A stretch of 43,322 nt of DNA from Escherichia phage PSK2, in the sequence record PP541514.1; one strand, given 5' to 3'. Within the stretch, counting starts at the first letter, position 1; each line of letters begins with the position of its first letter. Positions 15,022 to 15,855 of this stretch are shown in pieces. The notes beneath the pieces are model-generated. The model made no database searches. It was not told the DNA's origin and saw only the letters and a program-made list of their open reading frames with translations. A program made the position numbers and the translations under genes.

Positions 15022-15855
15022 ATGACTACGAATGTACTGGCATCCCTGAACGCCCTGGTAGACGCAGCAATCGAAACCCAAGATGTGGATATGCGGGAGA
15101 CCGCCCAGGGTGGTGCGTACGAGGACGTGCTGCTGCCGAAGGGTGAATACTATGGCTACTTCACCGAGTACGTGGAAATCGGTAAGCGTCTCCCGACTAA
15201 GGGTGGTAAGCCTACTGGTAAACCTGCCGCAGCTAACGTGCGTATCGGGATTGTAGTGTACGGTCCGAATGGCGAGGTTAAGCGTATCCGTCCGTATCCA
15301 ATGACTATCAGCAACTTTGAGCGCGCGGGCTTCAAGAAGTTCTTCGACAAGCTCAACTACGATGGCAGTATCAAGCATGCTGCACAGCGCCTGGGACAGG
15401 CGTTCGTATTCCCAGTGGATGAGCACACCAGCACGGCAGGTAAGAAGTCCAACATCGTAGACCTCGCAGCAATCCGCCCGATTCCTAAATTCGACCCGAA
15501 CACCGGTGAGCCGATTCAAATGCCTGCGCTAGATGCCTCCGAGATTAAGCTGTTTTTGTGGAATAATCCGACCAAAGAGACTTGGGATAGCTTGTACATC
15601 GAAGGGACCAAGGATGATGGTAAGAGTAAAAACTGGATTCAGGAGGACATGTACAAAGCAGTTGACTTCCCGGGCAGTGCTCTGGACATTATGCTGAACG
15701 CTGGTTCGGTCCCGAGTCCACAGGCTATGCAAGCACCAGCTGCCCCAACTGCCCCAACTGCCCCGGCAGCGCCGGTAGCGCCGGTAGCGCCGGTGGCCCC
15801 AGCGGCTCCAGTAGCCCCTGTAGCTCCGGTAGCGCCTGCTGCACCTCAAGCCTGA
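15022..15855 (+). CDS. Hypothetical protein (277 aa) with C-terminal Pro/Ala-rich tripeptide-repeat tail
   Basis: Good ribosome binding site; C-terminus APAAPTAPTAPAAPVAPVAPVAPAAPVAPVAPVAPAAPQA. Confidence 0.55.
   Translation: MTTNVLASLNALVDAAIETQDVDMRETAQGGAYEDVLLPKGEYYGYFTEYVEIGKRLPTKGGKPTGKPAAANVRIGIVVYGPNGEVKRIRPYPMTISNFERAGFKKFFDKLNYDGSIKHAAQRLGQAFVFPVDEHTSTAGKKSNIVDLAAIRPIPKFDPNTGEPIQMPALDASEIKLFLWNNPTKETWDSLYIEGTKDDGKSKNWIQEDMYKAVDFPGSALDIMLNAGSVPSPQAMQAPAAPTAPTAPAAPVAPVAPVAPAAPVAPVAPVAPAAPQA
15733..15852 (+). repeat. Tandem 9-bp repeat array (GCNCCNGTA-like units) encoding the Pro/Ala-rich tail
   Basis: Consecutive GCGCCGGTA units and variants read directly in the sequence. Confidence 0.6.

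Follow-up and report, generated by a model that had tools for sequence, protein, structure and literature searches.

Gene architecture and genomic context

The DNA analyzed here, referred to as the window, is a 43,322-nucleotide stretch of one strand of Escherichia phage PSK2 (sequence record PP541514.1), and the gene in question occupies positions 15022-15855 of its plus strand, where the list of open reading frames (ORFs) gives an ATG start and 277 amino acids plus a stop codon. We show that the product belongs to a large phage protein family, and we propose that it is probably the phage's own SSB (the protein that binds single-stranded DNA), with an uncharged proline/alanine repeat as its linker and no acidic tip. 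A preliminary description of the locus had placed a P-A-rich tail with a 9-bp coding array at about 15733-15852; codon-by-codon reading bears this out and resolves it into 13 uninterrupted tripeptides, PAA PTA PTA PAA PVA PVA PVA PAA PVA PVA PVA PAA PQA. The features of the gene, with domain boundaries taken from the structural model presented below, are as follows.

15008-15011, plus strand: Shine-Dalgarno-like GAGG, 10 nt 5' of the ATG, read directly from the sequence
15022-15141, plus strand: residues 1-40, a helix at the N terminus (5-19), then a loop modeled with low confidence (predicted local distance difference test score, pLDDT, below 50 at 26-31)
15142-15459, plus strand: residues 41-146, core modeled by AlphaFold as a β-barrel of the oligonucleotide/oligosaccharide-binding (OB) type
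15460-15711, plus strand: residues 147-230, mostly helical subdomain (pLDDT 82-96)
15712-15735, plus strand: residues 231-238, nonrepetitive junction PSPQAMQA between folded domain and repeat
15736-15852, plus strand: residues 239-277, (P-x-A)13 tail, 13 units of 9 bp by codon reading
15736-15764: 9-bp array, CCAACTGCC x3.2, 95% match (Tandem Repeats Finder)
15763-15836: 9-bp array, CCGGTAGCG x8.2, 80% match (Tandem Repeats Finder)
15760-15830: 36-bp higher-order repeat, x2.0, with the window's top score of 93 (Tandem Repeats Finder)

The higher-order repeat is a duplicated PAAPVAPVAPVA (x2), and CCGGTAGCG is a rotation of the unit GCGCCGGTA given in the preliminary description. Proline is encoded by CCA, CCG, or CCT and alanine by GCC, GCG, GCT, or GCA, the DNA units being only partly identical; the peptide repeat is thus better conserved than the DNA repeat, and the variation of the units at synonymous positions points to selection on the peptide rather than to recent DNA amplification. 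The array is G+C-rich (73% at 15733-15852 vs. 51% for the window), and from residue 231 on the protein contains no D, E, K, or R, leaving the tail uncharged. The junction is conserved in Drulisvirus relatives as AGSVPSPxAMQAPAAP.

Identity to Drulisvirus (KP34)-type podophages of Klebsiella is 85-88% in this region, and by this sequence criterion the phage is Drulisvirus-like (KP34/phiKMV-type). The replication module holds the gene, with the DNA polymerase on one side of it and the 5'-3' exonuclease on the other, in the following order.

7500-8288: primase
8488-9768: DnaB-like helicase
10127-12511: DNA polymerase
12489-12968: HNH endonuclease
13313-14326: metallophosphoesterase
14555-15016: HNH-AP2 endonuclease, adjoining the target gene upstream
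15022-15855, plus strand: the target gene
3' of the target: small ORFs, three or four in number, including two with matches to PHROGs of unknown function
16865-17833: 5'-3' exonuclease
17984-18406: endonuclease VII
18602-19081: another HNH endonuclease, between endonuclease VII and the RNA polymerase
19223-21691: single-subunit RNA polymerase, after the third HNH gene

Scans against Pfam and PHROGs returned no SSB-family match among the other proteins of the module.

A known but uncharacterized family in the polymerase-exonuclease slot

The protein matches phrog_862, annotated 'unknown function', over residues 6-270 (E=2.5e-81), and its N-terminal domain does so alone (E=5e-75); the same family is matched by phiKMV gp21 (E=9e-95) and Xp10 37L (E=3.7e-51), and LUZ19 gp21 is 37% identical to the PSK2 protein (E=7e-44). 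All features that define membership are present, namely the match to the family hidden Markov model (HMM), the location between polymerase and exonuclease, and a domain of about 225 amino acids followed by a low-complexity tail. The polymerase-X-exonuclease slot is shared by the relatives in phiKMV, LUZ19, Xp10, Aeromonas phage Ahp1, and a metagenomic contig (L068). Relatives were found by tblastn in 881 phage records, including phages of Klebsiella, Pseudomonas, Acinetobacter, Pectobacterium, Vibrio, Ralstonia, Rhizobium, and Caulobacter, and a HMMER search with a profile lacking the tail returned 919 cluster representatives at E<=1e-3 (clustered at 50% identity), 346 of them at E<=1e-30. The family is therefore large and already known (PHROG 862/NCBI PHA02030) but functionally uncharacterized. 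The preliminary description had left the N-terminal part without a function and had weighed the prospect of an invariant repeat on a domain from a known family with such tails; the domain does belong to a known family whose examined members are tailed, but the repeat, as shown below, is not invariant.

Pfam yielded no match for the target at E<=0.1 and none that was meaningful among 67 family members at E<=1. In GenBank, relatives are named 'hypothetical protein', 'large tegument protein', or 'Fe-S oxidoreductase', with 'single strand DNA binding protein' in three records. Pro/Ala-rich repeats are known in periplasm- and wall-spanning proteins, and the preliminary description had likened the tail to cell-wall-spanning as well as to flexible linker segments. 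An envelope-associated or wall-spanning protein, or a tegument protein or Fe-S oxidoreductase as the database names have it, is nonetheless hardly credible: no Pfam domain is present, the gene sits among DNA replication genes, residues 1-40 are modeled as a short helix plus flexible loop, and PDB sequence searches, with protein and profile alike, found only matches to tail composition (AKAP14 residues 257-295 and a collagen peptide). The LUZ19 ortholog is furthermore abundant early and turned up on 2-D gels when cytoplasmic protein content was studied (PMC3604761), and with these observations the wall-spanning likeness has to be given up. Judging from such hits, the 'tegument' label likely stems from low-complexity tail matches.

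The only experimental data on the family that we found come from the same LUZ19 work (Lavigne et al. 2013, PMC3604761), where Gp21 (PHA02030) and one other protein are the most abundant early/late-early products of the phage in infected cells and the function of Gp21 was described as not predictable from sequence. Our literature search found no experimental SSB assignment for gp21 of phiKMV, LUZ19, or Drulisvirus.

One annotated relative departs in length. Xp10 37L (L064 10814-11419), annotated at 201 amino acids, ends just past the LFLWD motif, without helical subdomain and tail, and is followed by an unannotated 200-nt gap before the exonuclease gene; on this basis, the annotation may have been truncated by a frameshift.

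Predicted structure of the folded domain

An AlphaFold2 model built with a 67-sequence alignment has a mean pLDDT of 84, exceeding 90 across most of residues 40-225. The N-terminal loop carries the invariant D23 and G30-G31 (motif DM.ET..GG). In the core, the modeled order of elements (β1 41-56, β2 70-80, β3 86-89, α 103-111, β4 127-136, β5 142-146) is that of an OB fold, whereas the helical subdomain that follows carries the family's most conserved motifs, LFLW.NPTKETWDSL, SKN[FW]IQE, and DF.GS.L, with the invariant residues F178, P183, W188, N204, Q207, A213, G218, and S219. Its role may lie in oligomerization or partner binding. The tail has no secondary structure in the model and pLDDT values of 51-70, which accords with the flexible-linker likeness drawn in the preliminary description.

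A Foldseek search against the PDB gave PriB, SSB, mitochondrial SSB, and SsbA as the top real matches at E of about 1e-2, with nothing below E=1e-3 and without T7 gp2.5 among the matches. Against viral models, the search recovered the protein's own family, Xp10 37L (E=8e-10), and a protein named SSB (4.5e-5). A DUF669 protein, A0A6J5PMU2, was matched at E=1.2e-5 with template modeling (TM) scores of 0.30/0.51 and is the sole link to DUF669. Structure prediction of the N-terminal domain, one of the checks suggested beforehand, thus yields an OB-type core with a helical subdomain; as far as the model goes, the fold is of the OB type and its resemblance to solved SSBs is weak.

C-terminal tails of relatives

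A low-complexity C-terminal tail, 18-196 amino acids long where its boundary could be found, is kept by every relative examined (the best-scoring 150 of the 919 representatives and closer homologs). We surveyed the tail ends of 154 representatives, which are of several types.

12 of 154: bacterial SSB-type acidic tip, as in ...LGDFDDDIPF (P0219), ...SELDDDIPF (P0168), ...AGDDDIPF (P0238), and ...DADDDIPY
23 of 154: ...D-x-L-A-x-L-G-L end, as in ...VDPLAALGL
39 of 154: uncharged and P/A/V-rich to the last residue, including the PSK2 clade
76 of 154: mixed or other, such as the phiKMV-type ...VPAVPQV and several [LIVM]-P repeat tails

P0089 is 47% identical to the target, lies in a matching gene order (DNA_pol_A ... 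X ... Endonuclease_7 ... RNA polymerase), and likewise has a P-x-A linker, which here runs into a bacterial SSB-type tip, ...APAEPSIDFDDDTPF. In the same slot, the tail of Ahp1 gp21 (hhalign 99.6%) is strongly acidic, with ...DEDDMPPL at its end. In these tip-bearing orthologs the P/A-rich segment evidently connects the folded domain with an interaction tip of the SSB type. The preliminary description had set the PSK2 tail apart from the acidic tails of T7-like SSBs; the tail is indeed uncharged, but the contrast misleads, given that the N-terminal domain is modeled as OB-type and that orthologs carry a P/A linker with an acidic SSB tip.

The direct homologs in phiKMV and LUZ19 (349 amino acids each) share the gene position and the architecture of a domain of about 230 amino acids plus a P/A/V-rich tail. 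Their tails are about 100 amino acids long, irregular, and V/P/A/Q-rich (...VPAVPQV), unlike the clean (P-x-A)n with 9-bp period in Drulisvirus.

The representatives with D-x-L-A-x-L-G-L ends are distant members (P0214-P0266), and in P0236 and P0255 this motif is followed by an acidic SSB-like tip. The C-terminal β-clamp-binding motif of Escherichia coli Pol IV is QLVLGL, which the D-x-L-A-x-L-G-L end resembles; the QLVLGL string occurs in β-clamp papers.

Length variation among close relatives

To the PSK2 sequence we compared 60 related IMG/VR loci, in which the N-terminal 226 amino acids are 90-96% identical to the PSK2 protein. Among the resulting 61 sequences, the tail after ...LDIMLN ranges from 30 to 102 amino acids, always in multiples of three, and takes 57 distinct sequences. 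The preliminary description had expected a slippage-prone array whose length might differ between isolates, and both expectations are borne out. L004 and L005 are 100% identical over 2.5 kb upstream and in the remaining gene and differ by one CCGGTAGCA unit (3 vs. 2 copies), L014 and L019 provide a second clean 9-bp indel, and L007 has a 102-amino acid tail made of a 15-amino acid (45-bp) higher-order unit. Contigs of one metagenome (3300045988), identical in the DNA of the N-terminal domain, are set apart by just one 9-bp unit, an indication that length variants co-circulate.

Such variability invites the explanation that only the N-terminal domain is functional and that the P-x-A array is neutral low-complexity sequence, kept since in-frame slippage is harmless. 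The 57 different tails among 61 close relatives, their span of 30-102 amino acids, the lack of structure in the model, and the wide variation of tail length and composition across the family (18-196 amino acids) all fit this account, which we nevertheless regard as rather improbable: all examined relatives keep a tail, lengths in Drulisvirus are tightly clustered (48-57 amino acids in 50 of 61), P-x-A makes up 94% of in-register tripeptides, charge is excluded (a single type of charged residue, K, in only two of the 61 tails), both ends are conserved (AGSVPSPxAMQAPAAP at the start and, in 56 of 61, APAAPQA at the finish), and the synonymous differences between units point to peptide-level selection. 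The length pattern is what slipped-strand mispairing would leave behind if selection acted on reading frame and composition.

Two relatives have lost the frame. P0090 (Klebsiella virus 2019KP1 KP1_19) is out of frame inside the repeat, ending ...APATLLLRQHRQHRLRQW..., and P0049 is out of frame well upstream of it; the explanation is an error of sequencing or assembly in the G+C-rich array, or else the frameshift allele is genuine. In practical terms, the array offers a fast-evolving in-frame length marker that separates near-identical Drulisvirus isolates, and is also a likely place for assembly and frameshift errors.

A candidate SSB with a tipless, uncharged tail

In light of these results, we consider it probable, though far from certain, that the PSK2 protein is the phage's own ssDNA-binding protein, with (P-x-A)13 as its disordered linker and with the acidic tip absent in this clade. 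The strongest functional clue is the occurrence of SSB-type tips in relatives; the proposal also draws on the position between polymerase and exonuclease, where we found no other SSB candidate, on the abundance of the LUZ19 ortholog, and on the three GenBank records that already name relatives 'single strand DNA binding protein'. High abundance is typical of stoichiometric ssDNA binders such as T7 gp2.5 and T4 gp32. In the mechanism that we envisage, the OB-type barrel of residues 41-146 would bind ssDNA, and (P-x-A)13 would form a spacer, intrinsically disordered and prone to polyproline II, that corresponds to the bacterial SSB linker running from OB domain to acidic tip. The tail may then set spacing or cooperativity between neighboring molecules, or make the conserved APAAPQA end available to a partner from the phage, while 9-bp units would be gained and lost by replication slippage such that tail length differs in nearly every isolate; copies would be free to slip because only the length and composition of the tail are constrained.

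The acidic tails of T7 gp2.5, T4 gp32, and E. coli SSB compete with DNA and recruit partners via the tip. Being uncharged and without an acidic tip, the PSK2 tail cannot work in this way, as either an ssDNA mimic or a handle of the SSB C-terminal (SSB-Ct) type.

An alternative reading retains the OB-fold nucleic acid-binding factor but gives it another main job, such as host shutoff, modulation of transcription or translation, or service as a polymerase or helicase accessory. It agrees with the phenotype of LUZ19 Gp21, the expression of which, on its own, stops Pseudomonas aeruginosa growth at once and lowers transcription and translation by 20-25%, with DNA replication unaffected (PMC3604761). 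We think it unlikely in view of the polymerase-exonuclease placement conserved in many phage lineages, the absence of another SSB candidate in the genome, and the near identity of some family tips to the bacterial SSB tip DFDDDIPF. It is also important to note that the LUZ19 phenotype does not separate the two readings, because overexpressed SSBs are commonly toxic.

Comparison with known SSBs clarifies what the proposed assignment as an SSB would and would not entail. E. coli SSB consists of an OB domain, a disordered linker, and the tip DFDDDIPF, and the PSK2 protein similarly combines a domain modeled as OB-type with a proline-rich, low-complexity, length-variable linker, which in some family members ends in the near-identical ...DFDDDIPF or ...DFDDDTPF. 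Unlike bacterial SSB, however, it has an extra helical subdomain and ends ...APAAPQA, with no acidic residue after 230, and sequence homology between the two is not detectable: the Pfam SSB family (PF00436) was matched neither by the target (E<=0.1) nor by 67 family members (E<=1). T7 gp2.5, an abundant early protein, comes from a related phage family, is OB-based, has the same presumed role, and is comparable in size (232 amino acids vs. a folded part of 230), but hhalign detected no similarity between it and the target, and gp2.5-like SSBs carry an acidic C-terminal tail with a terminal aromatic residue, whereas the PSK2 tail is uncharged and ends in alanine.

Kazlauskas et al. 2016 (PMC4889955) predicted that N4 gp45 and the DUF669 proteins are phage SSBs with a divergent OB fold, and 'DUF669-containing proteins' have been placed at the same position in replication modules of phiKMV order (PMC9145550). 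They resemble the present family in being candidate SSBs specific to phages, in their highly diverged OB fold, and in having tails at the C terminus. We do not file the target under the N4-type SSBs because hhalign shows no similarity, either with a single sequence or with a 40-sequence N4 gp45 alignment (probability 0.3%). Pfam gave no support for a bridge to DUF669, with no match to that family in the target, 66 other members, Xp10 37L, phiKMV gp21, or Ahp1 gp21 (E up to 1 or 10). The PSK2 protein thus likely works like an SSB, but we assign it to no characterized SSB family.

Ala/Pro-rich linkers are also known from the E2 chains of 2-oxo-acid dehydrogenases and the Pro-rich rod of TonB. 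They share with the tail its A, P, V, T, and Q composition, an extended and flexible character, and tolerance of length change, but they join two folded domains, whereas the PSK2 repeat runs to the C terminus with nothing attached.

A broader proposal, which we advance tentatively and consider doubtful, is that gp21/PHROG 862 constitutes an undescribed and very large class of phage SSBs built from an OB domain, a helical subdomain, and an exchangeable disordered tail with at least three end types: one that mimics the tip of the host's SSB (…DDDIPF), the β-clamp-like D-x-L-A-x-L-G-L, and tipless uncharged (P-x-A)n or (hydrophobic-P)n. Tipless tails would then act independently of charge, for example by polyproline-II self-association or phage-partner binding, with spacer length tuned by 9-bp slippage.

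Three things are new here: the evidence for this protein as the missing SSB of phiKMV-type phages, a picture in which the tail is a linker whose end can be exchanged, and the tipless, uncharged state of the Drulisvirus version. Many therapeutic phages of Klebsiella, Pseudomonas, and Acinetobacter are phiKMV-type podophages, which have no annotated SSB; if correct, the assignment would fill this gap in their replication module and allow hundreds of annotations in the databases to be amended. The family would further represent a natural experiment on what an SSB needs from its tail, with one folded domain joined to a host SSB-like tip, another conserved tip, or an uncharged repeat.

Minor features of the locus

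The Shine-Dalgarno-like GAGG lies within the 3' end of the upstream HNH-AP2 gene, whose stop codon (15014-15016) falls between GAGG and the target ATG. That gene (14555-15016) is a homing-endonuclease gene, with two further HNH genes in the same module. It looks like a mobile insertion because many Drulisvirus relatives lack it, aligning only from about position 15016 onward. Directly 5' of gp21, a phage-specific promoter is annotated in both phiKMV (L001 3980-4016) and LUZ19 (L067 1414-1433), which fits the gene's very high expression; the equivalent space in PSK2 is taken up by the HNH insertion.

Downstream, a perfect G+C hairpin, GGCCCCACCTGGGGCC, was found at 15879-15894, with a 6-bp stem and a 4-nt loop, 24 nt past the stop codon. 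It was the only hairpin returned by the terminator scan, and no plus-strand T-run accompanies it there; it may be an RNA element with a role in 3'-end formation, processing, or stability, or may terminate transcription by the phage polymerase. An antisense ORF at 15529-15849 on the minus strand (106 amino acids, Arg/Trp/Gly-rich) crosses the repeat and is most likely an artefact, the G+C-rich array being poor in stop codons.

Elsewhere in the window, short tandem repeats with 8-16-bp units lie near the left end, at 12-55 and 158-234, and are possibly terminal-repeat or promoter-region elements. A further tandem repeat at 23883-23929, an in-frame 18-bp unit x2.6, lies inside a 531-amino acid ORF (22429-24024).

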